This document shows positions 17,462-36,410 of a DNA stretch of 64,000 bases, piece after piece. This DNA comes from Nitrospirota bacterium (GTDB lineage: Bacteria > Nitrospirota > JACRHJ01). The notes under the pieces were generated by a model. That model saw only the letters and a list, made by a program, of their open reading frames with translations, had not been told where the DNA came from and searched no databases. The stretch is taken from positions 23,280-87,279 of the forward strand of contig JAJYHX010000001.1 of assembly GCA_021784575.1 (NCBI GenBank). Direction: 5' to 3'. The translations under genes and the position numbers were made by a program. Within the stretch, counting starts at the first letter, position 1. Each line of letters opens with the position of its first letter.

Positions 17462-18346
17462 CTAATCCTTTACTGCTGATATTATGCGCTCGATGCCCGC
17501 AAAATCAAGGATAATTTTCTCAAATCCAAGGCCCGGCGCATCGTTTATCATCTCCCGGACGGCCCCGGCCTGGCCGAAGCCAATCTCAAGCATAAGCCTC
17601 CCGCCGGGCTTTAAATACGCAGGCGCCTCACGGATAAGCCGCCTTATCGCATCCAGGCCGTCCGGCCCTCCGTCCAGGGCGGTTTTCGGCTCGAAAAGCA
17701 CCTCCGGCTGAAGACCTTGCATGTCGTCCGTCGGGATATACGGCGGGTTGGAGATTACGAGAGCGAGCCTGCCGCCAAGGCCCCTGTCCGAAAGAGGCCG
17801 CAACATGTCCCCTTCCAGAAATTCCACGCTCCCCGCCGCGCCGTTTTGTTCCGCGTTTGCCGCCGCCGTCTGAAGCGCGGCCCCGGACATGTCCACCGCA
17901 TAAACAAACGCCCCCGGCGCCTCCAGCGCAAGCGTAACCGCAATACAGCCGGAGCCCGTCCCTATATCCGCCGCAAGGGGGGAATCAAGCCCCTTCAGGA
18001 AATCCGCCCCTTCTCGCGCGAGTATCTCCGTCTCCGGCCTCGGAACGAGCGTTGCCGGGTTTACCTTGAACATCCTGCCCGAAAACTCCTGCCGGCCCAG
18101 GATATATTGCAGGGGTTCCCGCGCCGCCCGGCGTTCCACGAAGCGGATAAACCGCCCCCTGGCCGCCTGTCCGGGCTCTTCCCGGAGCCTCATAAACACA
18201 CCGGAGCGGCTGGTTCCCAATGCCTCCGCCATGAGGATCTCGGCTTCAATTTGCGGGTTTTCAACGCCCGAAAGCGAGAGAACATCGCCCGCCAGGGCTG
18301 CAAGGGATGCGATTTCCACGCAATCGGAGAGGCGTTTTTCTACCAA
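17462..18346 (-). CDS. prmC: Release-factor glutamine N5-methyltransferase.
   Basis: '[11 protein letters not shown]' SAM motif and 'VISNPPYIP'. Confidence 0.85.
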
Positions 18347-19410
18347 GATTCCTTCAGCCTCTCGGCGTTGTAGTAAGTCGTCAGGGCGTCGATGACTTCG
18401 TCGAGGACGCCTTCCACTATCTGGTCCAGCTTGTAAAGCGTAAGGTTTATGCGGTGGTCCGTCAGCCGGTTCTGCGGGAAGTTATACGTCCTGATGCGCT
18501 CGCTCCTGTCGCCCGTTCCGACCTGTGATTTCCTGTCCTGGGCGCGCTCCGCGTCCTGCTCCTCGCGTATCCTCTCCGCGAGCCGCGCCTGGAGCACCTT
18601 CATGGCTTTGGCCTTGTTCTTGAGCTGGCTCCTCTCGTCCTGGCAGGAGACAACCAATCCCGTCGGCAGGTGTGTAATACGCACCGCTGAATAAGTTGTG
18701 TTCACGCACTGGCCGCCGGGGCCGCTCGCGCAGAAAATGTCAATCCTTAAGTCCTTCTGGTCTATATTTACTTCGGCCTCTTCGGCCTCGGGCAGTATGG
18801 CGACGGTCGCGGCCGAGGTATGTATCCTGCCGGAGGCCTCCGTTTCCGGGACGCGCTGGACCCTGTGGACGCCGCTTTCGTACTTCAGCCTGCTGTAAAC
18901 GGCCTTCCCGCTTATCATGGCTATTATTTCTTTTATGCCCCCGCCGCCGGTCACGCTGGAAGATATTACCTCCACTTTCCAGCGCCGTTTCTCGGCATAT
19001 TTAGAATACATGCGGAAGAGATCCGCCCCGAAGAGCGCGGCCTCGTCCCCGCCCGTTCCCGCCCTTATCTCAAGGAATATGTTTTTTTCGTCGTTAGGGT
19101 CCTTCGGGACAAGCAGGGACTTCATATCCTGCTCCAGGGCGGCCTTTTTCGCCTTCAAGCTCTCAAGCTCGGCCTGGGCAAGTTCTCTGAAGTCCGGGTC
19201 GGATTTCTTGTCGTTTATTATCTCTTCGGCCTCGGCTATTGCCTTCTCGACGTCCTGGTATTCGCGGTATTTCTCGACCACCGGGGACAGTTCCGCCTGC
19301 TCCTTTGAATACTTCAGCATATCTGCCTGGTTCCCGTAGACGTTCGGGTCGGAGAGCAGTCTCTGGAGCTCGTCGTATTTTTCCACTACGGATTTTAACT
19401 TGCCAAACAA
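18340..19410 (-). CDS. prfA: Peptide chain release factor 1.
   Basis: '[22 protein letters not shown]' GGQ motif and the PxT-type decoding region. Confidence 0.95.
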
Positions 19411-20354
19411 TTTACGGCCTCCGTCCCTTTATCCTCTCCGTCCAGGGCCTCCGTCAAGGCCCTTAACGCGACCTCAAGCTGGTCGTCCGAAGGCTCCCTC
19501 GTGGTAAGTCTCTGCAACCAAAGCCCCGGCGCAACCATTATCTTCATAACCGCGTTATTCTTCCTCTTGGACGAAAACTTTATAAACTCGTACGAGAACC
19601 CGGCGATAAACGGTATAAGCACCACCCGTGATAGCGCCTTCATGTAAAACGGCGCGGACTTCGGCACAAACGAGAACACCAGGATGGAGAACACCATTAC
19701 AATAAGCAGAAAGCTCGTCCCGCAGCGCGGGTGCAGCGTCGAATACTTTCTGGCGTTATCGACCGTCAGGGCCTCGCCCGATTCATATGCGTATATCGCC
19801 TTGTGTTCCGCGCCGTGGTATTCGAATACGCGCCTTATGTCCTTCATCCGGGAGATCGCGAAAATGTAAAGCAGAAACAGCGCTATGCGTATTATTCCAT
19901 CGACCAGGTTGAACATCAAAGACGAGGACTGTGTAACCGGCATGACGTTCTTAAGCCCCTGGGTAATAAATAGCGGCAGGTAGAAAAACAGCGCAAGGCC
20001 AAGCCCAATCGAGAGCGTCATGGTGAGCCCAACCGCAAGGTCCGTCATTGGTTTACCGGTAGACCGGCCTCCCGACCCCTGCCCTCCGGCCCCCGACCCC
20101 TGCCCTTCCAAGGCGCAATTCGCTGAAAAATTAAGGGCTTTCAGGCCCAAGGCGAGGGAGGAAAACAGCGCTGCCGTTCCCCTAAGTATCGGCCATTTCA
20201 GGAATTTCCACTTATCGGCCATGAGCCGCAGGGGGTCTTTTTTAAGCAGAATCTCGCCCGAAGGCACTCTCACAGCCACGGTCATAGTCCGGGGCGCGCG
20301 CATCATCACGCCCTCGATTACCGCCTGCCCGCCGACACTGATTTGATTCTGCAT
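19395..20354 (-). CDS. DUF1385-domain membrane-associated protein.
   Basis: '[13 protein letters not shown]', '[13 protein letters not shown]'. The gene sits directly upstream of prfA, which is where DUF1385 genes are commonly found. Confidence 0.7.
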
Positions 20355-20412
20355 AACACCTCTGTTTACCTCAACCCCTCGCCCTCCGGGAGAGGGGACG
20401 GGGGTGAGGGCT

Positions 20413-20452
20413 AAAAAAACAATAGGAAACCAGCGTATGCCGCGGGTTTCCT
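20413..20452 (-). terminator. Putative rho-independent terminator after rpmE.
   Basis: On the minus strand, an 8-bp stem (AGGAAACC / GGTTTCCT, 20424-20452) is followed by ATTGTTTTTTTAG. Confidence 0.4.
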
Positions 20453-20478
20453 ATCGTGTATTGCAAGACTGAGAGTAG

Positions 20479-20682
20479 CTAAGCCTTTTTCGCGTATTTT
20501 TTGTTGAACCGCTCGACCCGTCCCTCGGTGTCCATGAGCTTCTGCTTGCCCGTGAAGAACGGGTGGCAGGCGGAGCAGACCTCGACGGAGACGCTCTTCC
20601 TGGTGGAGCGGGTTTCCATCACGTTCCCGCATGCGCATTTTATCTTGACCGGCTCGTATTTCGGATGTATGCCTTCCTTCAT
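20479..20682 (-). CDS. rpmE: 50S ribosomal protein L31.
   Basis: 'MKEGIHPKY...CACG...[13 protein letters not shown]'. Confidence 0.9.
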
Positions 20683-20890
20683 CTTTCCAATCTCCCTTTC
20701 GTTATTTTATCGATACTTATACCGAAGTTGCAATTATATCAGGGTTTCGGGGAATTTCAACTACTATTTTACTCTCAAGTGGCAGGCCAGTTTTCAGTTT
20801 AAAAACAAACGGTCTTTAATTAAGGGCGTAAAAGGAAAAATACGGCGGGTTCACTAAGGCAATATTAGATATTGTTACTTATCTATCTAA

Positions 20891-21298
20891 TTACCCGAGG
20901 AAGCGCCTGAGCCGGTTGGCTAACTTTAATTTGTTTTTCGTTTCGCATTCCCATACTACAAGCGCCTTCCAGCCGTTCGCCTTTAGGCTTCGCATTTGTT
21001 CGGCATCGCGCTCCACGTTACGTGCTAGCTTGCTCTGCCAAAAAGATACGTTCGATTGCGGCATGGTCGCTCGTTTGCATCCTTTGTGTTGATGCCAAAA
21101 ACAGCCGTGCACAAATATCGCCTTTCGTTTGCCGATGAAAACTATATCGGGTTCCCCCGGCAATTCTTCCCGATGAAGCCGGTACCGATAGCCTAATTCA
21201 TACACAATTTTGCGCACAGATATTTCCGGTTGTGTATCACGGCTGTGAACTGCACGCATGTTGGCGCTGCGGCGTTCGCTGGAGATTGTGTCCGTCAT
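20891..21298 (-). CDS. vsr: Very-short-patch-repair endonuclease.
   Basis: 'RDTQPEI..R...LGYRYRLH...LPGEPDIVF...KAIFVHGCFWHQH..C......P..N..FW..K...N..RD......LKANGWKALVVWECE'. The start was set to the ATG at 21298, which overlaps the upstream stop as ATGA. Confidence 0.85.
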   Translation of the reverse strand: MTDTISSERRSANMRAVHSRDTQPEISVRKIVYELGYRYRLHREELPGEPDIVFIGKRKAIFVHGCFWHQHKGCKRATMPQSNVSFWQSKLARNVERDAEQMRSLKANGWKALVVWECETKNKLKLANRLRRFLG

Positions 21299-21864
21299 TC
21301 CGCGAATTTTTTCCGCAGCCACTCGAAGACTGCCCTTTGTTCATCTTGTCCGGCACGCCTGACTTGCGACAGCAGCCAAATGCCCGTCGGTTTCTCGCCC
21401 GTGATGTTCTTCGCGCCTTGATTGCAGGTCGAACAAAGCGTCCGAAGATTTGACAGATCATCTAGGCCGCCAAGGCTTTTGTCTTTGACATGGCCGACAT
21501 GGAGCCTTACCTTGCGATTGGTAGCCGGGTCAATATCGCCCGGCGTGAGTCCGCACATTTGACAAGTGAAACCGTTACGGTCAAGAACTTCTGCGCGAAG
21601 CTTAGCAGATATGCCGCGCATAAACTTCACGTCCGGCTTTTCAGGCGGCTTTTCCTTCAGAATATATTCGCCCGGTTTAAGCGCCGTACTGTCATTGTGC
21701 GTGATTATCGGCCAACCCTCTTCATCACGTAATTCACGCACTCGACGTGCCCATTCACTTACGCCCGTACCTGCGGCGTTGCGAAGCTGAATTGATGTAA
21801 CTACCTGTCCGATATGAGCAAGCAGAAATTGTCTGATTAACTCCTTTGATCCGGGCTTACGCAT
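21295..21864 (-). CDS. HNH-family endonuclease with a ~100-aa N-terminal domain. Putative restriction endonuclease of the adjacent methyltransferase.
   Basis: 'CQMCG...HVGHVKDKSLGGLDDLSNLRTLCSTCN' HNH/His-Me finger. The gene overlaps the methyltransferase end by 8 nt and is overlapped by the vsr start. Confidence 0.7.
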   Translation of the reverse strand: MRKPGSKELIRQFLLAHIGQVVTSIQLRNAAGTGVSEWARRVRELRDEEGWPIITHNDSTALKPGEYILKEKPPEKPDVKFMRGISAKLRAEVLDRNGFTCQMCGLTPGDIDPATNRKVRLHVGHVKDKSLGGLDDLSNLRTLCSTCNQGAKNITGEKPTGIWLLSQVRRAGQDEQRAVFEWLRKKFAE

Positions 21865-22600
21865 TTAAGCGCCGCATCGCTGATTCTTGTTCCAAGTCCG
21901 ACATATATTGTAACAACTGCAACAATTGTTCTCCGATGAGTCGTGTATAGGCGGGCGGGATGGCTTCATTAATTTCGTTCTTGCTCATCCAGTCTATGCC
22001 CATCGCCTCTCGCGCAGCAGCGACTGTGCAGTTGCCGCCGCCTGTGACCTGAACAAAATCAACCCATTCGTTCGTCTTGCCGTAATGCGATTTTCGCTTA
22101 TCAAAAGTATGCACCTTCGGGTGCTTGCCGTGCGGCGGCGTTATTATTGAAAAATTTGCCTCAAACAGCCGATGCCGAAGCACGCGAAGACCGGGGAACA
22201 TTGTCCCGCATAAAACGACAGGCTCAGTTAAGGGTGCGCCTTCAACATTTTCTATTATATAAGGAAGTCCCGATTGAATAAGCAAGTCCCGCACTGGCTC
22301 AATTAGGCGCGGCCACTCATCGGCATTGCCGTTTCGTTTGGCAAGGTCTGAGTACGATTGACAAGGCGGTGATGCATGAACGGCGTCGAAAGAGGCTATG
22401 AATTTCGGATCAAGCGTGAGTGCGTCCGCCTGTATGAAAGCGAAAGGATAATTCGGTTGCGGATCAATATCGACTCCAACTACTTCAAAGCCTGCTTGGC
22501 TGTAACCTTTTCCGGCACCTCCAGCACAGCAAAAAAGATCAAGGAGCCGAAACCTCTTCTGTTTAGGTATTTTTTTCTTCGGTCTAAATATCAGGCTCAT
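21857..22600 (-). CDS. DNA (cytosine-5)-methyltransferase, unusually short at 247 aa.
   Basis: Motif I 'LDLFCCAGGAGKGY', motif IV 'ASPPCQSYS', motif VI 'YIIENV', motif VIII 'LRHRLF' and motif X-like 'EINEAIPPAYTRLIGEQL'. There is almost no target-recognition region between motifs VIII and IX/X. Confidence 0.8.
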   Translation of the reverse strand: MSLIFRPKKKIPKQKRFRLLDLFCCAGGAGKGYSQAGFEVVGVDIDPQPNYPFAFIQADALTLDPKFIASFDAVHASPPCQSYSDLAKRNGNADEWPRLIEPVRDLLIQSGLPYIIENVEGAPLTEPVVLCGTMFPGLRVLRHRLFEANFSIITPPHGKHPKVHTFDKRKSHYGKTNEWVDFVQVTGGGNCTVAAAREAMGIDWMSKNEINEAIPPAYTRLIGEQLLQLLQYMSDLEQESAMRRLNA

Positions 22601-22650
22601 TTTGTACTCTATCGAAAATTTAACACAAATATCTTTTCAATTCAATATGT

Positions 22651-25140
22651 TTATTCGGCCTCCCCGCCTTCCGCCTCCGGGAGCGCGCCGCCCCCGTTCT
22701 CATCTTTTTCCGCGAGCTTGGCGATGCTAACCACCTTGTCGCCTTCGCCCACGTCGAGGAACTTCACGCCCTTTGTGTTGCGACCAATGACGGAGACGCC
22801 CTTGACGGGCATACGGAGGATTTTGCCGTTCGTCGTAACCATCATCACTTCGTCGGAGTCGTCCACGGCGGCGATGCCTATGACGTTGCCGTTCCTGCCG
22901 CCGGTCTTGATATTGATAAGCCCCATGCCGCCCCTGGCCTGGGTGCGGTATTCGCTGGCCTTCGTGCGCTTGCCGAAGCCCGTCTCCGTGGCGCATAGGA
23001 TGGTCTCGTTCTCGCTTACGATAAGCTCCATCCCGACCACTTCGTCGTCTTTTTTAAGCTTAATCCCGCGCACGCCCGTTGCGCCCCGGCCCATGTCCCG
23101 CACGTCCGATTCCGCGAAGCGTATCGCCATGCCCGCTTTTGTCGCCAGCAGGACTTCGTCCTTCCCGCTTGTCTGCCGAACGTCTATTAGCCTGTCGCCT
23201 TCTTTCAGGTTAATGGCGATAATCCCTGCCGCGCGCGGGTTGCCGTATGCGGAGAGCGCGGTCTTCTTGACCGTCCCGCCGGACGTGGCCATGACAAGGA
23301 ACGCGTCGTCCGTAAATTCCCTCACCGGCAGGACAGCCGTCACCTGCTCGTCCGAGGACTTGTTGATGAGGTTTACCATAGCCTTGCCGCGTGCCGTTCT
23401 TCCGGCCTCCGGCACCTGGTATACCTTCATCCAGTAGACCCGGCCCTTGTCCGTGAAGAACAGGAGGTAGTCGTGCGTGGAGGCGGTAAAAAGCCTTTCG
23501 ACGAAGTCCTCTTCCTTCGTCTCCATGCCTATCTTTCCCTTGCCGCCTCTCCTCTGGCTTCTGTAGAGTGTAAGCGGGTTTCTCTTTATGTAGCCCGTGT
23601 GCGAGATGGTAATGACCATCTCCTCTTCGGCGATAAGGTCTTCGACGGTCAGTTCCGTGGACTCTTCCGCAATCTCCGTCCTGCGGTTGTCCCCGTAGGC
23701 CTCTTTTATCTTGAGGATTTCCTCCCTGATTATCTCCATAACCATCCTGTCGGAGGCAAGAACGGATTTCAGATATTCGATTAGCTTCAGGGTTTCTTTG
23801 TAGTCCGCGATTATCTTGTCGCGCTCAAGGCCCGTGAGGCGCTGGAGCTTCATATCGAGGATGGCCTGGGCCTGGATCTCGCTGAGGCCGAACTTCACCG
23901 TCAGGCCGTTCCTGGCCTCCTCCGGGCTGGCCGCGGCGCGGATAAGCTTGATTACGGCATCAAGGTTATCGAGCGCTATTTTGAGGCCTTCCAGTATGTG
24001 GGCCTTCTCTTCGGCCTTCCTAAGCTCGAAGCGCGTCCGGCGTATAACAATCTCCTTCCGGTGCGCGATGAAGAGCGTCAGCATCTGGCGGAGGTCGAGG
24101 ACGCGCGGCTGGTTGTTCACGAGCGCCAGCATGATTACGCCGAAGGTGGACTGCATCGCCGTGAACTTGTACAGCTGGTTCAGTATAACGGACGCGATTT
24201 CGCCGCGTTTAAGCTCCAGGACGATTCTCATGCCGTCCCTGTCGGACTCGTCCCTGATGTCGGAGACGCCGGAGATCTTCTTATCCCGCACGAGCTCGGC
24301 TATTTTCTCAATCAGCCGCGCCTTGTTCACCTGATAGGGAAGCTCGGTGATTATTATCGCCTCCCTGTCTCCCTTGTCCATCGGGACAATCTCGGCGCGC
24401 GCGCGCACCTGTATCGACCCGCGCCCGTGCATGTAGGCTTCTTCGATCCCGCGCCTGCCGTAGATTATGCCCGCGGTCGGGAAGTCCGGGCCTTTTATCG
24501 CCTTCATAAGCTCGAAGACGGTCGCCTTCGGGTTGTCGATGAGCATCAGGACGCCGTCGGACACCTCGCGCAGGTTGTGCGGCGGGATGTTCGTGGCCAT
24601 GCCGACCGCGATGCCCGTGGAGCCGTTTATCAGCAGGTTCGGGATGCGCGCGGGGAGCACCGTCGGCTCAAACATGGATTCGTCGTAGTTCGGCGCGAAG
24701 TCCACCGTCTCTTTTTCGATGTCGGAGAGCATCTCGTCCGTTATGCGCTCCATCCGCACCTCGGTATACCTCATCGCGGCGGGCGGGTCTCCGTCCACGG
24801 AGCCGAAGTTCCCCTGGCCGTCCACGAGCGGATAGCGCATGGAGAAGTCCTGCGCGAGCCGGACAATCGTGTCGTATACCGCGGCATCGCCGTGCGGGTG
24901 GTATTTGCCTATCACGTCGCCGACGACGCGGGCGGATTTCTTGTAAGGCTTGCCGCGCGTGAGGCCAAGCTCGTGCATGGCATAGAGCACGCGCCTGTGG
25001 ACGGGTTTTAAGCCGTCGCGCACGTCGGGGAGCGCACGTCCCACGATTACGCTCATCGCGTAGTCGAGGTAGGAGGTCTTCATCTCCTCTTCGATGTTTA
25101 CGGTCGGGACAAGTGATTTATTTTCGTCGAGTGGAGTCAT
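22651..25140 (-). CDS. gyrA: DNA gyrase subunit A.
   Basis: 'HPHGD', 'AMRYTE' active-site Tyr region, and the C-terminal beta-pinwheel repeats. Confidence 0.95.
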
Positions 25141-25403
25141 TAAATTCCTCTGTATGCTTCTTTCCGATAGGCTATTCTATAAATAGTTATTTCTTTAATA
25201 TCCTCGTCTATCGAATACAATATCCTGAGGCGGCCAATCCTTATCCGCCAATCATTTTCATATCCCTTTAATTTGCGGGAACCTATTGGCCGGGGATGGA
25301 CCGAAAGAGTTCCAATGGCCGTCGAAACTCGCTCATAATCGGCGTTGCTTAATAATGCTATCTCTTTCTCCGCCTTTTTCGTGAGTCTTATCCTATAGCT
25401 CAC
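25140..25403 (-). CDS. RelE/ParE-superfamily type II toxin.
   Basis: 87 aa. '[14 protein letters not shown]...[50 protein letters not shown]'. Its TAA stop overlaps the gyrA ATG as TAATG. Confidence 0.75.
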
Positions 25404-25603
25404 TTCTTCAGGCCCCGCCGCCTGTCCTCTCTCTTCTTTACTTCTTCCCAGGAAACCGTCGGCTCGTTTCTCACTTCGTCAATCAGCTTCGCATCAATTA
25501 CGTCCTGCGCGAGTTCAATCAATTCCTGATAATCTTTATACGGCAGGAGCACGCTTTTCTTCCGGCCTTTTTTATCGACAACAAATTGCGGACGCATTGT
25601 CAT
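25400..25603 (-). CDS. Phd/YefM-like antitoxin.
   Basis: 'MTMRPQFVVDKKGRKKSVLLPYKDYQELIELAQDVIDAKLIDEVRNEP'. It overlaps the toxin start by 4 nt. The chosen ATG at 25603 lies 14 nt inside the gyrB 3' end. Confidence 0.55.
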   Translation of the reverse strand: MTMRPQFVVDKKGRKKSVLLPYKDYQELIELAQDVIDAKLIDEVRNEPTVSWEEVKKREDRRRGLKK

Positions 25604-25616
25604 TTTGTTACCTCTT

Positions 25617-28040
<2,424 letters not shown>

Positions 28041-28081: not shown

Positions 28082-28636
28082 TCACGAGCGGTCTATCTTC
28101 CGTTCCGGAAGGAGAACTTCCTTCAGTATCTCCTCCGCCTGCTCCCGGACGCCGCCTTTTCCGAGATTTTCCTTGCCGGCCATCTCCTCCACGTCAATCC
28201 TGACAATCTCCGTTCTTGCAAGCTTCTCCGGCAAATAACCGCCAAAGCCGCCTTCCGGCTGGTATTTCTCCATCAGAAGGCCAAAAGCGGCCATCCGTTC
28301 CGTCTCGTCCCACACTATCCGCGCCCGCCCTTTTGCGACGACGCTCCGGTATAGGTACCCGGCCTGGCACGGCTGATCCTTTGCGCGCTGAAAAGCCACC
28401 GGCAGGTCCGCTTCGAAGCAGACCCGACCATCTCTTTTTATGTCGTCTATCTTTTCGCCATCCCTTGCGGAGTGGAAGTATATCCGGCCCGCGCTGTAAG
28501 CGAAATTCAACGGTTTTATCATCGGCCTGCCGTCTTTGGCTATCGTGCCCAGGCGGCCAACCCTGCAACCTGCCGGAAGAGACTCGGCTGCCTCTTTTGA
28601 TATTTCTTTTTCCTTGCGTCTCATCTCTATCCGCAC
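28082..28636 (-). CDS. Pyridoxamine-5'-phosphate-oxidase-like FMN-binding family protein.
   Basis: Split-barrel-like pattern 'GRLGTIAKDGRPMIKPLNFAY..GRIYFHSA..GEKIDDIKRDGRVCFEAD' and length. Confidence 0.5.
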   Translation of the reverse strand: MRIEMRRKEKEISKEAAESLPAGCRVGRLGTIAKDGRPMIKPLNFAYSAGRIYFHSARDGEKIDDIKRDGRVCFEADLPVAFQRAKDQPCQAGYLYRSVVAKGRARIVWDETERMAAFGLLMEKYQPEGGFGGYLPEKLARTEIVRIDVEEMAGKENLGKGGVREQAEEILKEVLLPERKIDRS

Positions 28637-28642
28637 TGAAGG

Positions 28643-29758
28643 CTATACCCGCATCGGCATCACGACGCACTTATACGACTCGCCGCCGGCCTGGCTTATT
28701 ATGCAGGGAGATAGGTTGTCCTTTAAGAGCAGGCTTACCTTGTCCTGGTCCATAACGGAGAGCGCGTCGAGCAGGTATTTCGCGTTGAAGCCGACTTCCA
28801 GCTCCTGTCCGCCGTATTCCACCGGAAGCTCCTCCCTTGCCTCGCCTATCTCCGGGTTCTGGGAGGTAAGGGCCGCCTTTTCCTTCGACAGGACAAACTT
28901 CACGGCGTTCGTGCGCTCGCGGGAGAGAAGCGAGACGCGCCTCAGGGCCGCCGTAAGGAGCGTCTTCTCGACGGATACGGATTTGTCGTTCGACGTCGGT
29001 ATGACCTGCTCGTAGTTGGGGTAGTTGCCCTCTATCAGGCGCGTAACGAGGTAGAGCGAGCCCAGGCGGAATACGACATGGTTCTTGGAGAGCGCCATCA
29101 TAAGCTCCGTCTCTCCCTCGTCGAGGAGTTTTTTTAGTTCCGAGGCGGATTTTTTGGGTATTATGGCCGTCCCGGGGGCGGCCTTGGCGGAGATCCTGCG
29201 CTTCAGGACGGCCAGGCGATGGCCGTCCGTGCCCACCATTTCTATCTGTGAGCCGCCATCCTGCGAGGTTATGGCCATATAGATGCCGTTTAGGACATAT
29301 CTCGTGTCGTTGTCTCCGGCGGCGAAGATGGTCTTCCGTATAAGTTCGTGCATCAGGAGCGGGTCTATCGGAACAAACTCGGCCCCTTCCATCTCCGGAA
29401 GCGTCGGGAATTCCTCCCTGGCCAGACCTGTAAACCTGAATGTCGCCTTCCCGCTCTTTATCGTGGCCCAGTTGTTCTCCGCGCTCTCCACGGAGACCTC
29501 TTCCTCCGGCAGTTCCCGGACAATCTCGAAGAGCTTCCTGGCCGAAAGCGTCACCCCGCCAGGCTCCGCCACCTCCGCCTGATAGACGCCCTTAAGGCCT
29601 ATTTCGAGGTCCGTCGCGGTAATGGCGATGCCCCCGCCGCCATCGACGGTCTCTATCAGGGCATTGCTCAAAACCGGCATTGTATTGCGCCTGTCCGCCA
29701 CGGACTGCACCCTCGACAGGCCCTTGAGGAACTCTTCCTTTTTGATCAGAAATTTCAT
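28643..29758 (-). CDS. dnaN: DNA polymerase III beta sliding clamp.
   Basis: 'MKFLIKKEEFLKGLSRVQ', three-domain length, and the C-terminal 'CVVMPMRV'. Start at ATG 29758 behind an AAAGGGG RBS. Confidence 0.9.
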   Translation of the reverse strand: MKFLIKKEEFLKGLSRVQSVADRRNTMPVLSNALIETVDGGGGIAITATDLEIGLKGVYQAEVAEPGGVTLSARKLFEIVRELPEEEVSVESAENNWATIKSGKATFRFTGLAREEFPTLPEMEGAEFVPIDPLLMHELIRKTIFAAGDNDTRYVLNGIYMAITSQDGGSQIEMVGTDGHRLAVLKRRISAKAAPGTAIIPKKSASELKKLLDEGETELMMALSKNHVVFRLGSLYLVTRLIEGNYPNYEQVIPTSNDKSVSVEKTLLTAALRRVSLLSRERTNAVKFVLSKEKAALTSQNPEIGEAREELPVEYGGQELEVGFNAKYLLDALSVMDQDKVSLLLKDNLSPCIISQAGGESYKCVVMPMRV

Positions 29759-29784
29759 TGGAGCCCCTTTCTCAGATAATTTAT

Positions 29785-29882
29785 TAACCCTTTGCTTTTC
29801 TTTCACGAGAAAGAAAAGTAAAACAAAAGAAAGCAAAACCTTATGTCCGGACTTTCCTTTGTTACTTTCTTTTCTCCCGAAA
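29785..29882. repeat. Composite palindromic repeat element in the dnaN-dnaA spacer, consisting of two hairpins.
   Basis: Hairpin 1 is CTTTTCTTTC-acga-GAAAGAAAAG (29785-29808). A spacer then contains CAAAAGAAAGC. Hairpin 2 is GTTACTTTCTTTTC-tccc-GAAAAGAAAGTAAC (29851-29882), a perfect 14-bp stem. Confidence 0.8.
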
Positions 29883-29896
29883 AGAAAGTAACGACT

Positions 29897-31288
29897 TTAT
29901 CCCTTAACCGCTTTTGCCAGAGCCTCGACCTCCGCGTCGAATTTTATGTCGTTTGCGCGCCGCTCGTCCACCTGGCGGCAAGCATGGAGAACCGTGGTGT
30001 GGTCCTTGCCGCCGAACGCCTTCCCGACCTCCGGGAACGAGCCGCCTGCGACAGTCCTGCAAAGATACATCGCCACCTGCCGGGGCTGGACGAGGTTCCT
30101 GGTGCGCTTCTTGGACTTTATCTCGGATATTTTTATCTGGAAGTGGTCCGCCACGAGCTTTATTATCTCGTCGAGGCCGATTACCCGCTCCTTTTCGGCG
30201 ATGATGTCCCTTAGCACCACCCTCGCAAGCTCCAGGGTTATCTGGCGGCCCGTAAGGGATGCATATGCTCCAAGGCGAATAAGCGAACCTTCCAGTTCCC
30301 TGATATTAGACTTTATGTTGTTTGCCAGGAACATAGACACGTCATCCGGGACGGTTATCCCATCCTGCTCCGCCTTCTTGGCTACGATTGCCGCCTTTGT
30401 CTCCATGTCCGGGGGCTGAATATCCGCTATAAGACCCCACTCAAAGCGCGACCGTAGGCGTTCCTCCATGTCCGGCATCTCCTTCGGGAAGCGGTCGGAG
30501 GACAGGACAATCTGTCTGCCATATTCGTGTAACGTATTGAAAGTATGAAAAAATTCCTCCTGCGTGCGCTCCTTTCCGGCAATGAACTGTATGTCGTCTA
30601 TAACCAGAAGGTCGGTATTTCTGTATTTATTGCGAAACTCCGTCATGCGGTTATAGTGAATGGCGGTGATAAGCTCGTTCGTGAACTCCTCGGAGGTAAG
30701 AAATGTTATCCTGGTCTTTGGGGAGTGTTCCTTTATATACGCGCAGATGGCCGAAAGGAGGTGGGTCTTGCCAAGACCCACGCCCCCGTATACAAACAGG
30801 GGGTTATAGGCCCTGGCGGGGTTTTCCGCAACGGCCTTTGCCGCGGCATGGGCGAACTCGTTGGACTTGCCGACGACAAAATTACTGAATGTATATTTCG
30901 GGTTGAAACCGTGTGGTTTCCTGGCCTTCTGCTGCTCGGCCCCAGGCGCGTCACGGAGGAGAGCCGGCGGGGTTTCGTCCTTTCCGTCTCCGGCCTCCGC
31001 CCCTTCTTTGCCGTAATTCCCGCCATGGCCAAAACCCTTTGATATGTGAAACGAAAGGGCTATCTCGTCCCTTTCGAGGACCTCCTTTAAGACTCGCGTC
31101 AGAATATCGAAATAATGTTCAAGCAGCCACTCCTTGAAGAACTTGTTCGGGACGTTTAAGGCGACCCCTGTCGCGTCAATGGACTTCAGTCTTACCGGGC
31201 GAATCCAGGTATCGAAGTTCTGACGGCTTACCTCCCTCGAGATAAGCTCCTGCGCCTCAGACCAGATATCCTTTGCAACTTCCTGCAT
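29897..31288 (-). CDS. dnaA: Chromosomal replication initiator DnaA.
   Basis: 'GGVGLGKTHLL' Walker A, 'LLVIDDIQF', and the C-terminal DNA-binding 'VAMYLCR..'. Confidence 0.95.
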   Translation of the reverse strand: MQEVAKDIWSEAQELISREVSRQNFDTWIRPVRLKSIDATGVALNVPNKFFKEWLLEHYFDILTRVLKEVLERDEIALSFHISKGFGHGGNYGKEGAEAGDGKDETPPALLRDAPGAEQQKARKPHGFNPKYTFSNFVVGKSNEFAHAAAKAVAENPARAYNPLFVYGGVGLGKTHLLSAICAYIKEHSPKTRITFLTSEEFTNELITAIHYNRMTEFRNKYRNTDLLVIDDIQFIAGKERTQEEFFHTFNTLHEYGRQIVLSSDRFPKEMPDMEERLRSRFEWGLIADIQPPDMETKAAIVAKKAEQDGITVPDDVSMFLANNIKSNIRELEGSLIRLGAYASLTGRQITLELARVVLRDIIAEKERVIGLDEIIKLVADHFQIKISEIKSKKRTRNLVQPRQVAMYLCRTVAGGSFPEVGKAFGGKDHTTVLHACRQVDERRANDIKFDAEVEALAKAVKG

Positions 31289-32009
31289 AATCTTTCCTGA
31301 TAAACCAAGAAAACGTTGAGAGTCAAAAGATTTTTGGATTAAAACCGCAGGTTTAAGTTACTCACACCGTTTTCCACACCTGTTGATAAACCTGATATTA
31401 TTTTATTTTTCAATAACTTTAACCCCATAAACCTGCGTTTGGGGCGTTATTTTTCACAGGATTTAAGTCCTCGTTTTTTCATCGTTTTATAAGTTTAAAA
31501 AATGGCATCCAGCTGCTGCTTTTAATGCCTTGCTTCGTCTGCTTCGGCAAGAATGGCAGAATACGCCATATTAACAGAAGCGGGGTGTCTTAATCAAGAT
31601 ATTTCTATTATGGCCTGGAAAGTTTAAGAACCTGTTAATTCAAGAATTTTCAAAACCTTAAACGACAGTTTGAGGCCGCGCGGGAATACATAAACAACAT
31701 GTTTCCACACAGGAATTTCACGTGGTCTCCCGTTGTTTTTTTAAGGGCTTACTCTCTGTTTTCACATCTTCACAACTAATGACTATTAGTGTTACTATTT
31801 CTCTAAACTTTAAATAGGGGGATAAGGAACGAATTTTTAGCCTGAATGGTAGTGTCCTAATTTGAATTCCTTAGATAAAAAGGCCGTATTTTGACGGCAT
31901 TTTTCATTTTATGCCTTGACAAATGTAATTATTATAATTAATATAGTTTTTTAGAAGAAAATAAAAAACCCACGGATAAAGTGGGGAGCGGAGCTGCAAG
32001 TTTTTAGCC
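31289..32009. other. Putative oriC region / dnaA promoter region.
   Basis: AT-rich non-coding stretch next to dnaA. Degenerate DnaA-box-like 9-mers include TTTTCCACA (31370-31378), TGTTGATAA (31381-31389) and GTTTCCACA (31701-31709). An AT-rich DUE-like run lies at 31921-31970. Confidence 0.5.
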
Positions 32010-32132
32010 TACCTGCCGCACTTGGGGCCGATAGGCTTGGGGTTGGAGCGTGTATGGGCCTTGACCTTTACGGCGTTCTTTGCCCCGGTCTTCTTCACCC
32101 TTTCGGGACGACAGATGACCTTGGTTGCCATG
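32010..32132 (-). CDS. Candidate small basic protein (40 aa) of unknown function.
   Basis: Not in the ORF track. The ATG is preceded by GAAAGGAGAAAGAC, a strong SD 6 nt upstream. The product is 'MATKVICRPERVKKTGAKNAVKVKAHTRSNPKPIGPKCGR', and no family was recognised. Confidence 0.3.
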
Positions 32133-32185
32133 TCTTTCTCCTTTCTCGACGGCTATGGGAACCGCCGTGCCACTATACAGCGGTT

Positions 32186-32231
32186 GCCGTTAGAAAAGAA
32201 AAAGGACTCCGCCCCCCGCTATATCGGTGGG
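32186..32231 (-). terminator. Putative terminator downstream of the defence operon (possibly bidirectional).
   Basis: A GCCCCCC-gctatatc-GGTGGGC hairpin (32209-32231) is flanked by a T-run on both strands: TTTATTTTG on the plus strand and TTTTTCTTTTC on the minus strand. Confidence 0.35.
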
Positions 32232-32233
32232 CT

Positions 32234-32548
32234 TTATTTTGCCTTATATTCCTGAATAATTGCGGCCTTAACAGCATCCTGGGCCGACTTTATAGGGGGA
32301 GTATGAAGGACGGCGAAAAACCGCCTTTTTGAACTTCCCTCAATAGGCGAAGACCAAGCATAGCATTTCTTGGCAAGCGGATTGCCCTTGATATTAAACA
32401 CGTGGACAATCCCTTGCCATACAACCTTATCTTGAAAGGTTTCTGAGACGTAAACCGTATCTGCCAGCTTCGCAGTGCATCCGTGCATCCGCTCAACGGC
32501 TTCTTTTAACTGGTCTATGTTTTCGGTCATTTTGGGAATATAGGCCAA
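32234..32548 (-). CDS. Hypothetical protein (104 aa), last gene of the RHH / DUF262-DUF1524 operon.
   Basis: The ORF overlaps the end of the upstream nuclease gene. No recognisable motif, and low-GC codon usage like its neighbours. Confidence 0.4.
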   Translation of the reverse strand: MAYIPKMTENIDQLKEAVERMHGCTAKLADTVYVSETFQDKVVWQGIVHVFNIKGNPLAKKCYAWSSPIEGSSKRRFFAVLHTPPIKSAQDAVKAAIIQEYKAK

Positions 32549-34236
32549 GTTTCAATCGCCAATTTTGCCAAGTTTTTTTGCCTGTCTGTTATTTGTTCAA
32601 CGTCCCACTTATCGTAACTTGCCACCTCGGACGTGAGTAGAAAGGCTGACTCTTTTAAGACCTTTTTCTTTTCCGTAAAGGGACTATTGCCAATCATTGA
32701 GTTCTTTTTCGCCTGGAGAATAACCATATTTCCGATTCTGTTGTAATATGCCCCTGCTGTTTCAGGGTCAATTCCGGGCCATTCGTTCTTAGGGTTTTCC
32801 GGCAAAATATGCTCAAGGTTTATTACGTTTTCTTCATCGGACGGCACAAACTCAGGCTCAGGGTCGTTTTTCTTTTTTAATTCCAAGGCGCGGAGATAAT
32901 AACGTGCCCGGAACACCTGGGAAATGCGAGCATCGGCAAAGGCTGCCTCAAACATTGCATCACTCGGTACGACCTCAGACATAGCATTAGCAAGTTGTTT
33001 TGCGGTCTTTACCGTACCGCTCGCTACTTCTTGTGCCCGAAGAGCATAGTTGCGGTCAAGCAATCCACCACGCCCTCCGACAAAAAGAAATCTGACAGAC
33101 CAAAATAGAAGCATCCGAAAAGCCAGGCGTCCTTCCTCTACGGAAAAATGGCGCGATACCGCAAACAACAACGGGATAATCTGTAATACCCGAATATCCC
33201 GGTTTAAAGTGGAAATGTTTTTCCGTGTAGTTGTGCCGTATTCGTTCCATTTCTTATGGTCAGAGTTGAAAAGCGCAGCATAATCATTCGCTCCCTCCGC
33301 AAGCTCTTCCAAAAATTCGAGAGAACGGTTTTGATTGTTTACAAGCTGCTTGATTTTATCGAAAATCTCGCGTTCCTTTGTAGGCCCATATTTTGTAATT
33401 AAAAGGTGATGTAAATATGAAACCGTAGTGTCTTCTCTTTCTAAGGATTCCAGTATACCCATCATTTGGGCCCATTTTTGCTGAGCTTCTCTTATGCGGT
33501 CACCGGAATAACCGAGAAGATGATTTTTAAGCAAATCCGCCTGGGATGCTTTAAGCCCTCTATCGTTAAGAGTTTCAAACATTAAAAAAGCGTTTAAATG
33601 GTCGGGCACTCGCAATAAAATTACCTGTGCGCCAGAACGAATAAAGCGAATCCATTCAAGAAGTCGTGCGGTCTTGAGGGGTTCTTTTTGGCCAAAAGGA
33701 TCAAGAAGCTCCTGAATATATTTTGCCGCAATGTCAGATGCGGTTGTTATTCTCTTATGGGAATCCTTGGTTGGTTTTACTTTTCTGTCGGGACTGTCGG
33801 GAGAGGAGAGAATAAATTTTCGGAAAAAATCGTTATCGTCAACATTCAAGCGAAGCTGCGGGACAATATCTGTCGTTTCAATATCGGTTTTCAGCAGAAA
33901 CTCCTGTTCAATAGGAGTGGCCCTTAACTTATCTCCACTATTGAAAAAATAATCTCGGATTGCCGCTATAAGTATAGCGGTTGTAGCAAGGCGTTGTTGG
34001 CCGTCGGAAACTTCCGGTATATCCCCTTCGCCTCTCGTCAATACGATAGTTCCTAAAAAATAACTTCCCTTGTTGGCCGCTATAGCGTTAGCAAAATCGG
34101 TGAATAAATCCCTGACATGCCCTTCTTCCCACGAATATTCTCTTTGGTTAAGCGGCACGGCAAGACGGTTTTGTGCCAACACATCACCAATTCCCCTGTG
34201 TTCAAACCCGATTTCTTCAGCTGGCTGTTTTGCCAT
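32527..34236 (-). CDS. DUF262 (ParB-like, DGQQR) plus DUF1524 (His-Me/HNH-like) two-domain nuclease, i.e. GmrSD-family type IV restriction-like enzyme.
   Basis: N-terminal 'VSDGQQRLATTAILIAAI' (DUF262 DGQQR motif). C-terminal 'NLEHILPENPKNEWPG...YYNRIGNMVILQAKKNSMIGNSPF' (DUF1524-type His-Me finger). The gene is about 45% GC against a much higher GC in the surrounding genome. Confidence 0.8.
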   Translation of the reverse strand: MAKQPAEEIGFEHRGIGDVLAQNRLAVPLNQREYSWEEGHVRDLFTDFANAIAANKGSYFLGTIVLTRGEGDIPEVSDGQQRLATTAILIAAIRDYFFNSGDKLRATPIEQEFLLKTDIETTDIVPQLRLNVDDNDFFRKFILSSPDSPDRKVKPTKDSHKRITTASDIAAKYIQELLDPFGQKEPLKTARLLEWIRFIRSGAQVILLRVPDHLNAFLMFETLNDRGLKASQADLLKNHLLGYSGDRIREAQQKWAQMMGILESLEREDTTVSYLHHLLITKYGPTKEREIFDKIKQLVNNQNRSLEFLEELAEGANDYAALFNSDHKKWNEYGTTTRKNISTLNRDIRVLQIIPLLFAVSRHFSVEEGRLAFRMLLFWSVRFLFVGGRGGLLDRNYALRAQEVASGTVKTAKQLANAMSEVVPSDAMFEAAFADARISQVFRARYYLRALELKKKNDPEPEFVPSDEENVINLEHILPENPKNEWPGIDPETAGAYYNRIGNMVILQAKKNSMIGNSPFTEKKKVLKESAFLLTSEVASYDKWDVEQITDRQKNLAKLAIETWPIFPK

Positions 34237-34237
34237 T

Positions 34238-34423
34238 TTAGTCTCTCTTCGTTTGCAGGAAGGCCACTGGAATAGATGCCTCTTCCAACTCTTTTACGGC
34301 TGCCCGTCGTAACCGCTCTCTCGCCCACATAGACAAGGGTAGCCCTGTTATCTTCGCGGCTTGCTGGAAAGCTTCTTTTTCCTCTGGTTCAAGCATTATT
34401 AAAAAGGATTTCGTTTTTGCCAT
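34238..34423 (-). CDS. Ribbon-helix-helix (CopG/antitoxin-like) small DNA-binding protein, first gene of the operon.
   Basis: 'MAKTKSFLIMLEPEEKEAFQQAAKITGLPLSMWARERLRRAA' has the typical RHH antitoxin/regulator pattern. Its stop abuts the nuclease start. Confidence 0.5.
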   Translation of the reverse strand: MAKTKSFLIMLEPEEKEAFQQAAKITGLPLSMWARERLRRAAVKELEEASIPVAFLQTKRD

Positions 34424-34429
34424 TAGATA

Positions 34430-35470
34430 TATCTCTCCTTCCTGTTTTTGAAAATATATATCAAGTCTAATTAAATGTCAACCCCTATTTTAAAAAATAC
34501 ATCTATTAGATATATAAAAATCATTTTCTTATTGACATATATATCGACTCAATATATACTTTAAACAATCGAAAGGAGAAATCACGATGAACAGGTTATC
34601 TACCGAGAGGCAGGCACAGATTATAGGCGGTTTAGTGGAGGGTAATTCTATCCGCTCCATTGAACGCATGACGGGCACTCACCGCGATACAATAATGCGG
34701 CTCACGCTTAACGTCGGGGAAAAGTGCTCACGGATTATGGATGAACAAATGCGTAACTTGAATTGTGATAGGATTCAGGTTGACGAGATATGGACATACG
34801 TCCAGAAGAAGCAGAGGCGAGTTATTCCCGGTCTCGACGACCCAGGCCGTGTAGGAGACCAGTGGACGTTTGTTGCGCTCGACCCCGACACAAAGCTTGT
34901 GCCGACATATCTAATCGGCAAGAGGGATTTGGAGACGGCAACGGCTTTCATGGTTGACCTTTCAGAGCGATTAGCTAACAGGGTGCAAATATCTTCTGAT
35001 GCGCTCAGGGCATATATTGAAGCAACGGAAAGGGCCTTTGGTGCGGATGTTGATTACGGCCAAATAGTTAAAGTCTATGAAGCTGAACCAGCGGGAGCCG
35101 GAAGGTATAGCCCGCCCGAAGTTATTAAGACCGAGAAGTCAACCATCATCGGCAGACCCGACAAGGGCCATATATCTACAAGCCTTGTTGAACGGCAGAA
35201 TTTGACGATGAGAATGAGCATGAGAAGATTCACTCGTCTAACTAATGCTTTCAGCAAGAAGATAGAGAATTTGCGCGCGGCGGTCGCACTCCACTTTGCC
35301 TATTATAATTTCGTCAGGGTGCATCGGGCGTTGAGGATTACCCCTGCTATGGCGGCTGGCGTTACAAATCAAATCTGGTGCGTGGAGGACTTATTAGCAA
35401 ATTAGGACACTACCGCCTGAATACTATTCTTGACTTTTCCCGTTTTTTGGAAGATAATACTTTTTTTGCA
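34430..35470 (+). mobile_element. IS1-family-like insertion sequence (ends not defined) in a strongly AT-rich patch.
   Basis: The transposase CDS at 34587-35405 is flanked by AT-rich sequence of roughly 25-30% GC. A sigma70-like promoter (TTGACA-N17-TATACT) lies at about 34541-34569. Inverted repeats could not be assigned confidently. Confidence 0.55.
34587..35405 (+). CDS. IS1-family transposase (single ORF with an N-terminal HTH and a DDE domain).
   Basis: 'IQVDEIWTYV', 'WTFVALDPDTKLVPTYLIGKRD', and a C-terminal 'LVERQNLTMRMSMRRFTRLTNAFSKKIENL' resembling the IS1 InsB '[25 protein letters not shown]'. Confidence 0.7.
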   Translation: MNRLSTERQAQIIGGLVEGNSIRSIERMTGTHRDTIMRLTLNVGEKCSRIMDEQMRNLNCDRIQVDEIWTYVQKKQRRVIPGLDDPGRVGDQWTFVALDPDTKLVPTYLIGKRDLETATAFMVDLSERLANRVQISSDALRAYIEATERAFGADVDYGQIVKVYEAEPAGAGRYSPPEVIKTEKSTIIGRPDKGHISTSLVERQNLTMRMSMRRFTRLTNAFSKKIENLRAAVALHFAYYNFVRVHRALRITPAMAAGVTNQIWCVEDLLAN

Positions 35471-35498
35471 AATCTAACAAACAATAACGGAGAATACC

Positions 35499-35633
35499 AT
35501 GAGCATAACATATCAGCCAAGCAAGCTCAAAATGAAACACACCCACGGGTTCAGGAGCAGAATAGCCACCGCCGCCGGGAGACTCGTCCTGAAGCGCAGG
35601 CGCGCCAAGGGCCGCAAAAAGCTGACACCGTAG
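35499..35633 (+). CDS. rpmH: 50S ribosomal protein L34.
   Basis: Not in the ORF track because it is only 44 aa. '[44 protein letters not shown]'. Confidence 0.9.
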
Positions 35634-35653
35634 GGATCCCCCTTTCTTCCTGG

Positions 35654-35685
35654 TTACTTTTCTTTTCTCACGGAAAAAAAGTAAC
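35654..35685. repeat. Degenerate copy of the palindromic hairpin repeat, between rpmH and rnpA.
   Basis: GTTACTTTTCTTTTC-tcac-GAAAAAAAGTAAC. Confidence 0.6.
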
Positions 35686-35694
35686 GGTTTAATT

Positions 35695-36198
35695 ATGCCT
35701 TTTTCTTTAGACAAATCCTGCCGGATAAGAAGAAGCTCCGATTACAAGCGGGTGTATGATGAAGGCGTCAGGGTTTCCGGTAAATTTGTCATAGCGGTAA
35801 TCAGGCTGTCGGGAGAGCCTTTAAGGGTTGGTATAACCGTCAGCCGCAAGGTTGGAGGAGCATGTGTCCGGAATCTTGTCAAGCGCAGGATACGCGAGGC
35901 GGTGCGCTTGGAGTTTGACCCGGCCCTGTCCGGCTGGGACGTGGTCCTTGTCGCAAGAGGGCGGGTTGGACAAAAGGGGCAGGAGAAGCCGGGTAGTTTA
36001 AACGGGCCGGGAGGGAGAAAAAGGCCCGGCGGCGCTGCCGGGCCGGACGCGGCGATAAAATCGAGAGGCATAAAGAAGACAGCGTCCAATTTTCCTTCAT
36101 TTTCCGGGATAGTAGAGGATATAAGGCGGGTGACCGGGAGACTCTCCGGGATACAAGGTAAGCGGCCCGCGTGCGATTTCGGGATAAAAGGCAAGTGA
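35695..36198 (+). CDS. rnpA: RNase P protein component with an unusually long low-complexity C-terminus.
   Basis: '[15 protein letters not shown]', '[26 protein letters not shown]', 'WDVVLVAR'. The stop overlaps the yidD ATG as TGATG. Confidence 0.75.
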
Positions 36199-36410
36199 TG
36201 ATGAAGTGGATATTTATCGGTTTAATAAAGCTCTATCAGGCGGTAGTATCGCCGATAATCCCTCCGCGTTGCCGTTTCTATCCGTCGTGCTCCGAATACT
36301 CTCTTGCCGCGCTTAAAAAACACGGTCTTTTCAAAGGCTTGTTCCTGACAGTAAAAAGACTGCTTAAATGCCATCCGCTCCATCCGGGCGGATATGACCC
36401 AGTGCCGTAA
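36198..36410 (+). CDS. yidD: Membrane protein insertion efficiency factor YidD.
   Basis: '[62 protein letters not shown]'. Confidence 0.85.

Follow-up and report, generated by a model that had tools for sequence, protein, structure and literature searches.

Three genes of low GC content stand between rpmE and gyrA in a 64,000-nucleotide (nt) stretch of contig JAJYHX010000001.1 from a Nitrospirota bacterium (the window, by which we mean that whole stretch), and the question they raise is whether they act as one system and, if so, what the nuclease in their middle does. They encode a C5-cytosine DNA methyltransferase (MTase; M), an HNH endonuclease (R), and a Vsr very-short-patch repair endonuclease (V). 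An earlier note on this DNA, written from the sequence alone, took the HNH protein for the probable restriction enzyme of a methyltransferase-restriction-Vsr (M-R-V) module, the nuclease of which would then be of the HNH type. Comparison of the island with its relatives leads us to regard it, with good though not complete confidence, as a horizontally acquired three-gene type II restriction-modification cassette in which R would be a winged-helix/HNH restriction nuclease.

The gap between rpmE, which starts at 20682, and gyrA, whose stop lies at 22651, is filled exactly by the three minus-strand open reading frames (ORFs) for M, R, and V (Table 1). The 3' end of the MTase gene and the ATG of the HNH gene (21864) overlap by 8 nt (ATGCGTAA), and the TGA stop of the HNH gene (21297-21295) overlaps the vsr ATG (21298-21296) as ATGA; the ORF coordinates confirm the overlapping layout described in the earlier note. 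The lower GC of the island with AT-rich borders, also remarked there, was found again, with a GC of 0.48 for the island compared to 0.59 for gyrA and still lower values for both borders. Third-position GC is 0.49-0.56 in the island genes compared to 0.69-0.81 in rpmE, gyrA, gyrB, prfA, and DUF1385. These differences from the flanking housekeeping genes, in GC and in third-position GC, mark the three genes as foreign. A weak promoter may lie in the spacer between the gyrA stop and M, or M may be transcribed by read-through from gyrA; a promoter scan upstream of M gave no site above the scan threshold. The spacer between vsr and rpmE holds the promoter-like site of rpmE itself (TTGAAA-16-TATAAT with TG, 20760..20733). 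Terminal direct or inverted repeats and target duplications were sought at the island borders, with short chance-level matches as the only result, and no integrase or transposase accompanies the cassette.

M, which belongs to a compact group of MTases that we call family A, matched PF00145 with 38.3 bits (cut-off 22) over amino acids (aa) 17-121 only, and its score against the NCBIfam model TIGR00675 (dcm) was 29.1 bits, below the cut-off of 100.65. Its motifs were checked in an alignment of 43 sequences, with homologues 72-86% identical. Motif I (DLFCCAGGAG), motif IV (SPPCQSYS, with Cys80), motif VI (ENV, with Glu117), motif VIII (RHRLFE), and motifs IX/X (AMGIDWM...NEAIPP) were invariant in all of them. 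A catalytically dead MTase, which the earlier note had named as a threat to its own proposal, was therefore rejected, because every catalytic motif is intact and invariant. The target-recognition region of M is unusually short, the distance between motifs VIII and X being just about 66 aa. The AlphaFold 2 model of M had a predicted local distance difference test score (pLDDT) of 85, and its top Foldseek matches were M.HaeIII, M.HhaI, and the catalytic domain of DNMT3B. The nearest annotated relatives of M outside the cassette are solitary methylases in phage-like replication modules on plasmids of Embleya (L095) and Paenibacillus larvae (L096), a hint that anti-restriction methylases of phages were the source of family A.

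R matched PF01844 with 35.8 bits (cut-off 21.4). It consists, in order, of a winged helix (aa 1-70, pLDDT 75-92), a linker, a zinc-bound HNH domain, and two C-terminal helices, and its HNH residues are invariant (H125, N139, and N148, with CxxC...CxxC at C101/C104/C144/C147). The region of about 100 aa ahead of the HNH motif, which the earlier note had treated as an unassigned N-terminal domain, is real; however, it is a winged-helix DNA-binding domain (aa 1-70) together with the linker. Two PADLOC profiles for "Type II restriction enzyme" (REase_II, about 218 aa) matched R across both domains, with values of 1e-12 and 1.5e-11. A sequence search of the PDB with R gave motif-level matches only, to the HNH domains of IscB and of group II introns, with no sequence match to any solved HNH restriction enzyme or to 1fiu or 1ev7. 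Foldseek against the PDB returned nothing significant, and no solved structure there fits R as a whole. When the R-family alignment was compared by hhalign with a full-length NaeI-family protein, the probability was 0.2%. R shows no homology to the PD-(D/E)xK core of NgoMIV and NaeI; although it may act in their manner, with the same predicted site, it does not belong to their group.

The third gene is a vsr by its profile scores. V covered positions 1-119 of the 119 in TIGR00632 with 147.5 bits (cut-off 97.85) and matched PF03852 with 99 bits. The longest vsr ORF begins at GTG 21322; homologues align from the ATG instead. Vsr repairs T:G mismatches that arise from deamination of 5-methylcytosine (m5C) and is normally coupled to Dcm-type methyltransferases.

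More than 7,450 database proteins match the HNH family, and relatives of R occur in at least 540 of 185,579 species genomes. Synteny and MTase partners were counted in the best 80 of these relatives, whose HNH proteins are 67-86% identical. The titles of these 80 records name Acidobacteriota, Verrucomicrobiota, Planctomycetes, Armatimonadetes, Lentisphaerae, Kiritimatiellia, alpha-, beta-, gamma-, and delta-proteobacteria, Actinomycetes, Dehalococcoidia, Spirochaetota, and Bacteroidota. A C5-MTase lies directly upstream of the HNH gene in about 76 of the 80 loci, often with overlapping stop and start codons, and always on the same strand except in L038, where the two genes are divergent. Because this order recurs in so many unrelated genomes, the arrangement in the window is not a product of chance. 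Wherever the HNH gene is intact and its flanks are readable, the C5-MTase is immediately upstream. A match to an MTase is absent only in L043, L064, and L084, the last of which begins at the edge of its locus. In L043 (4540-5088) and L064 (6049-6558) the N-terminus of the HNH protein is truncated or replaced, and L064 keeps its vsr; these truncations are consistent with inactivation after loss of protection.

The partner is constant in kind and not in family. Three unrelated MTase families were found beside the HNH gene: the short family A of the window type (about 52 of 80 loci), family B, whose members have 320-340 aa and the motif PCPPFS (about 27 of 80), and family C, with about 365 aa and the motif PCQGFS, which among the 80 was seen in L048 alone and occurs on a Pandoraea plasmid as well. 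Cultured carriers include Paracidobacterium acidisoli 4G-K13 (L001/L010), where family A M, HNH, and Vsr occur together, and Paramagnetospirillum kuznetsovii LBB-42 (L046), where the HNH gene is paired with a family B M. Vsr is an optional and dispensable part of the family; it was present in about 60% of loci, directly 3' of the HNH gene in about 40 of the 80 and upstream of M in about 8. Synonymous sites of the HNH genes are saturated across phyla (proportion of synonymous differences, 0.73-0.88), compared to non-synonymous differences of just 9-22%, and third-position GC follows the host in several lineages. Such saturation and tracking of the host argue for old and strong purifying selection, not a recent sweep, and the slow evolution that this implies is unusual for a restriction enzyme.

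Two further observations concern genes near or within these relatives. In two Sphingomonadales genomes, a family A M-HNH-Vsr cassette is flanked by a stand-alone ORF of about 120 aa (L080, 4683-5057, minus strand; L040, about 6385-6738, minus strand) with homology to the DNA-binding domain at the C-terminus of NaeI. The two ORFs are 38% identical to aa 188-265 of a NaeI-family protein from plasmid pROB02 and 47% identical to each other, and they could be a regulator or the remnant of a displaced NaeI gene. On plasmid pPO70-1 of Pandoraea oxalativorans, an ORF annotated just as "Vsr" (L088, 2595-3953) lies downstream of a family C C5-MTase.

The exchange of partners also bears on the target site. 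We predict, with slightly better than even confidence, that R of the window cuts GCCGGC, a site reached through the shared nuclease and not through the MTase of the window itself. Family B is the M.NgoMIV family, with full-length identity of 51-69%, recognition region included, to the gonococcal MTase upstream of R.NgoMIV, and the identity of R.NgoMIV in Neisseria gonorrhoeae was verified (E 1e-188 compared to PDB 1fiu). An M-HNH pair on an Acidithiobacillus plasmid has an MTase 83-84% identical to the partners of "NgoMIV family" nucleases on plasmids pAES2 and pNORD58_4; its identity to the MTase beside such a nuclease on pDSM110277_f is 68%. Relatives of family C (45% identical) are paired with an NgoMIV-family nuclease and Vsr on plasmids of Mycobacterium and Rhodococcus. 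Since two of the MTase partner families pair elsewhere with NgoMIV-family nucleases, the HNH protein appears to fill the nuclease slot. About 27 close relatives of the window HNH protein (67-75% identical) partner M.NgoMIV-family MTases, although the partner in the window is of a different family. If GCCGGC methylation is its only protection, a nuclease must recognize this sequence, alone or within a longer site. Between the HNH proteins that accompany family A and those that accompany family B, identity reaches 80-81%, no lower than in many pairs within family A, and R of the window is for this reason predicted to share the site. No HNH isoschizomer of NgoMIV or NaeI came up in searches of the literature.

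The history of the island was read from a metagenomic relative, L085, which carries the same cassette at the same gyrA/rpmE site. Synonymous divergence (dS) between the window and L085 was 0.14-0.19 for the three island genes, 0.29 for rpmE, and 0.63-0.65 for gyrA, DUF1385, and prfA. Across positions 17500-23100 of the window, nucleotide identity to L085 was 95-96% in the island and 85-89% in the housekeeping flanks. The spacer on the gyrA side is 94% identical in L085; the spacer on the rpmE side is the least conserved stretch, with 83.6% identity and 86 gap columns. The island is younger than the split between the hosts, because its dS is far below that of the flanks, and most likely it was exchanged between the host of the window and that of L085 by homologous recombination through the flanks. 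The intermediate dS of rpmE suggests a recombination tract that ended in or near this gene. The ratio of non-synonymous to synonymous divergence (dN/dS) was 0.12-0.16 for M, R, and V, indicative of purifying selection and hence of a functional cassette. An empty rpmE-gyrA site was not recovered: an exact-protein look-up of the window HNH protein returned nothing, and a look-up of rpmE returned a 1.4-kb contig only. Elsewhere, cassettes occupy other places, namely rplM-rpsI/DLH in Paracidobacterium and a glycoamylase/polysaccharide export context in L002.

Taken together, these data favor the restriction component proposed for the HNH protein in the earlier note: a C5-MTase upstream of it, partner swapping, truncation where the MTase is missing, REase_II matches, an intact MTase, and low dN/dS all point the same way. 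The HNH type of the nuclease was borne out as well, but its novelty had been overstated, as HNH-type type II enzymes are known and the island site is shared with at least one relative. In the cassette as we picture it, M would methylate a cytosine within host copies of the target sequence. R, with its start translationally coupled to the end of M, would bind a palindrome, probably as a dimer, and read the unmethylated target through the winged helix at its N-terminus; the cut would be made by a zinc-stabilized HNH (beta-beta-alpha-metal) active site. V, coupled to R by the ATGA, would nick 5' of the T in T:G mismatches left by deaminated m5C, and short-patch repair after the nick would restore the target site. 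The predicted target is GCCGGC, as close relatives of R are interchangeably partnered with M.NgoMIV-family MTases that elsewhere serve NgoMIV- or NaeI-family nucleases.

Several observations weigh against this explanation or against parts of it. The HNH-domain part of the R model is of medium confidence (pLDDT 47-77), and the likeness of R to the C-terminal winged helix of NaeI is marginal (domain-restricted hhalign, probability 47%). Family A has no characterized relative, its site being reached solely via the shared nuclease partner, and a family A MTase was never seen beside an NgoMIV- or NaeI-family nuclease; the distant relatives of M, with 40-45% identity, come from phage-like plasmids of Streptomyces and Paenibacillus and are orphan MTases. 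Observed-to-expected ratios of 4- and 6-mer palindromes were computed over about 0.9 Mb of host loci together with the window, and the ratio for GCCGGC (0.55 in the window, 0.73 pooled) was similar to those of other GC-rich palindromes. This depletion is generic avoidance and is uninformative on the site. On pROB02 of Rhodococcus opacus B4 (L090, 1957-5816), a family B MTase, an HNH homologue (32% identical), a NaeI homologue (E 8e-79 compared to 1ev7), and Vsr lie together, so that the HNH homologue adjoins a genuine NaeI-family nuclease and would be redundant or otherwise employed. Finally, the "Vsr" ORF of the Pandoraea plasmid is a 452-aa fusion of Vsr, two winged helices, and an HNH domain. 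The pROB02 cluster also adjoins DUF262/HEPN genes, and one MTase there is apparently common to two nucleases.

These last two loci lead to the first of the alternatives, in which the HNH protein acts together with Vsr as an accessory nuclease and is not the restriction enzyme, either on damage from m5C deamination or as a methylation-"addiction" toxin, and the MTase is effectively solitary. The natural fusion in Pandoraea, the presence of an HNH homologue beside a bona fide NaeI-family nuclease and Vsr on pROB02, and the ATGA coupling of the HNH gene and vsr in the window would all fit this scenario, as would a Vsr-like protein of Caulobacter that damages DNA without cognate methylation and so stabilizes a solitary MTase (PMC12907096). 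However, some 40% of loci have M and HNH without any Vsr within the flanks, so that the constant pair is M-HNH and not V-HNH. The HNH protein also occupies the position of the NgoMIV-family nuclease beside the same MTase families, and a tblastn search of the 80 loci with NaeI, in which NgoMIV-family queries were not used, found no second nuclease, just the small domain fragment in L080. The pROB02 homologue, at just 32% identity, may have diverged in function. We consider an accessory role improbable. A related proposal, to which we give little credence, is that Vsr and the winged-helix/HNH protein function as one unit of two nucleases, as the ATGA coupling, the Pandoraea fusion, and the pROB02 cluster might suggest, and that the cassette is primarily a self-stabilizing "epigenetic addiction" module, with phage restriction secondary. 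Loss of the MTase would then turn both nucleases on unmethylated or mismatched host GCCGGC sites, and the conservation of the HNH protein across phyla would reflect a dual constraint.

A second alternative makes the HNH protein a modification-dependent type IV nuclease, McrA-like and of winged-helix/HNH build, which acts on foreign methylation and is merely co-located with an unrelated MTase. Many members of the family are annotated "McrA" by the Joint Genome Institute, although this label is the generic name of COG1403. Stand-alone winged-helix-HNH fusions have been shown to be type IV enzymes dependent on N6-methyladenine (m6A), and according to the same study winged-helix nuclease fusions are type II when an MTase is adjacent and type IV when they stand alone, as 87% of the type IV winged-helix-HNH enzymes do (PMC11037411). 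In contrast, the HNH genes compared here directly follow an MTase gene in about 76 of 80 loci, in many cases with translational coupling, and are truncated where the MTase is missing. The best Foldseek match of R in the PDB is EcoKMcrA, which is non-significant (E 0.038), and relatives of R match the PADLOC mREase_IV profiles weakly (E 4e-4 to 7e-3), whereas the REase_II scores are far better. A type IV enzyme thus seems very unlikely.

A homing-type nuclease that spreads the cassette by cutting empty sites, with MTase and Vsr as passengers, is scarcely credible and was rejected: the many unrelated chromosomal contexts without an adjacent integrase or transposase, the lack of detectable terminal repeats, and an island younger than its flanks in the window lineage would agree with it, but the insertion sites have no common target, the strict dependence on an upstream MTase of interchangeable families is a signature of restriction-modification, the younger island is equally explained by homologous recombination through the flanks, and the gene is chromosomal, in an M-R operon, with phage proteins matching in the HNH motif only or at less than 34% identity. 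A colicin-type toxin, which the earlier note had set beside the homing nuclease as a reading that could undo its proposal, was likewise rejected.

The type II cassette stands in a row of genes near the replication origin, and other features of this row were recorded. The origin region lies within the window at about 28600-36200, with a change in the sign of GC skew at about 33-35 kb. A ParE-toxin/RelB-like antitoxin pair (87 and 92 aa; PF05016 and PF18506) occupies 25140-25678 on the minus strand between gyrA and gyrB; with its low GC of 0.45, it is another small insertion in this row. What lies between gyrB and dnaN is not recF but a PNPOx-like gene (28082-28636). A GmrSD-type type IV restriction endonuclease gene (PF03235 and PF07510; 32527-34236, minus strand, GC 0.44) and the remnant of an IS1-like transposase (34587-35405, plus strand) share a low-GC stretch beside dnaA and rnpA. 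With this GmrSD-type gene besides the M-R-V cassette, at least two restriction systems would lie within 15 kb of the origin.

Table 1. Positions in the window of the cassette genes, the spacers that border them, and genes of the origin region.
Feature	Position	Strand	Remarks
M, compact C5-cytosine DNA methyltransferase (family A)	22600..21857	-	247 aa; stop TAA ends 21857
R, winged-helix + HNH endonuclease, predicted type II restriction nuclease	21864..21295	-	189 aa; ATG at 21864
V, Vsr very-short-patch repair endonuclease	21298..20891	-	135 aa from ATG
Spacer, gyrA stop to M start	22601..22650	-	50 nt, AT-rich, GC 0.22
Spacer, vsr to rpmE	20683..20890	-	AT-rich, GC 0.35
dnaN	28643-29836	-	
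dnaA	29897-31288	-	
rnpA	35695-36198	+	
yidC	36523-38130	+	

HNH-type type II restriction enzymes are well known, KpnI and Hpy99I among them, and M-R-V modules are known as well; the nuclease family of R itself is uncharacterized. Current understanding is left as it was, and the gain is one of annotation: in place of "HNH endonuclease / McrA", a type II enzyme and its site can be predicted for a nuclease family found in hundreds of environmental species. The known enzymes of this type (KpnI, Hpy99I, PacI, MnlI, Eco31I, and the SphI/NlaIII groups) resemble R in the beta-beta-alpha-metal fold, usually with Cys4 zinc sites, and in being small proteins that each have a cognate methyltransferase. 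R differs from them in its N-terminus, which is a winged helix where Hpy99I has a beta-barrel, and in its partner, an m5C MTase accompanied by Vsr. The type IV winged-helix-HNH enzymes share with R the order of winged helix and then HNH; however, they are m6A-dependent, 224-283 aa long, and mostly without a neighboring MTase, whereas the R family is nearly always coupled to a C5-MTase (PMC11037411).

As in the Dcm-Vsr and M-(R)-V modules (EcoRII/Dcm-Vsr, HpaII, XorII, and NaeI), vsr of the window is translationally coupled to an m5C system, in which it would be expected to counteract m5C-to-T mutation of the methylated site; the coupling, however, is to the nuclease gene and not to the MTase gene. 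Closest in organization is NgoMIV (G^CCGGC; N. gonorrhoeae and plasmid relatives), also a two-gene operon of M then R with overlapping or abutting genes. MTases of the M.NgoMIV family serve about a third of the winged-helix-HNH family, Vsr is often attached, and the predicted target is the same. In contrast, R.NgoMIV, at 286 aa, is a PD-(D/E)xK enzyme that forms tetramers and has no relation in sequence or fold to the 189-aa R of the window, and the window MTase belongs to a compact 247-aa family outside that of M.NgoMIV. If its predicted site is right, M would be among the most compact readers of a 6-bp site and of relevance to the engineering of small m5C writers. NaeI (GCC^GGC), a type IIE enzyme with an M/V gene cluster, binds DNA by a CAP-like winged-helix domain at its C-terminus. 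Its catalysis is of the PD-(D/E)xK kind and its winged helix is an allosteric effector domain, whereas R has no candidate for a recognition domain other than its winged helix, to which an HNH nuclease is fused. If the prediction holds, GCCGGC would be served by three unrelated nuclease architectures, the NgoMIV tetramer, NaeI with its effector winged helix, and a 189-aa winged-helix/HNH protein, and the swapping of partners among three unrelated MTase families would show modular replacement in restriction-modification systems in a clean, natural case.

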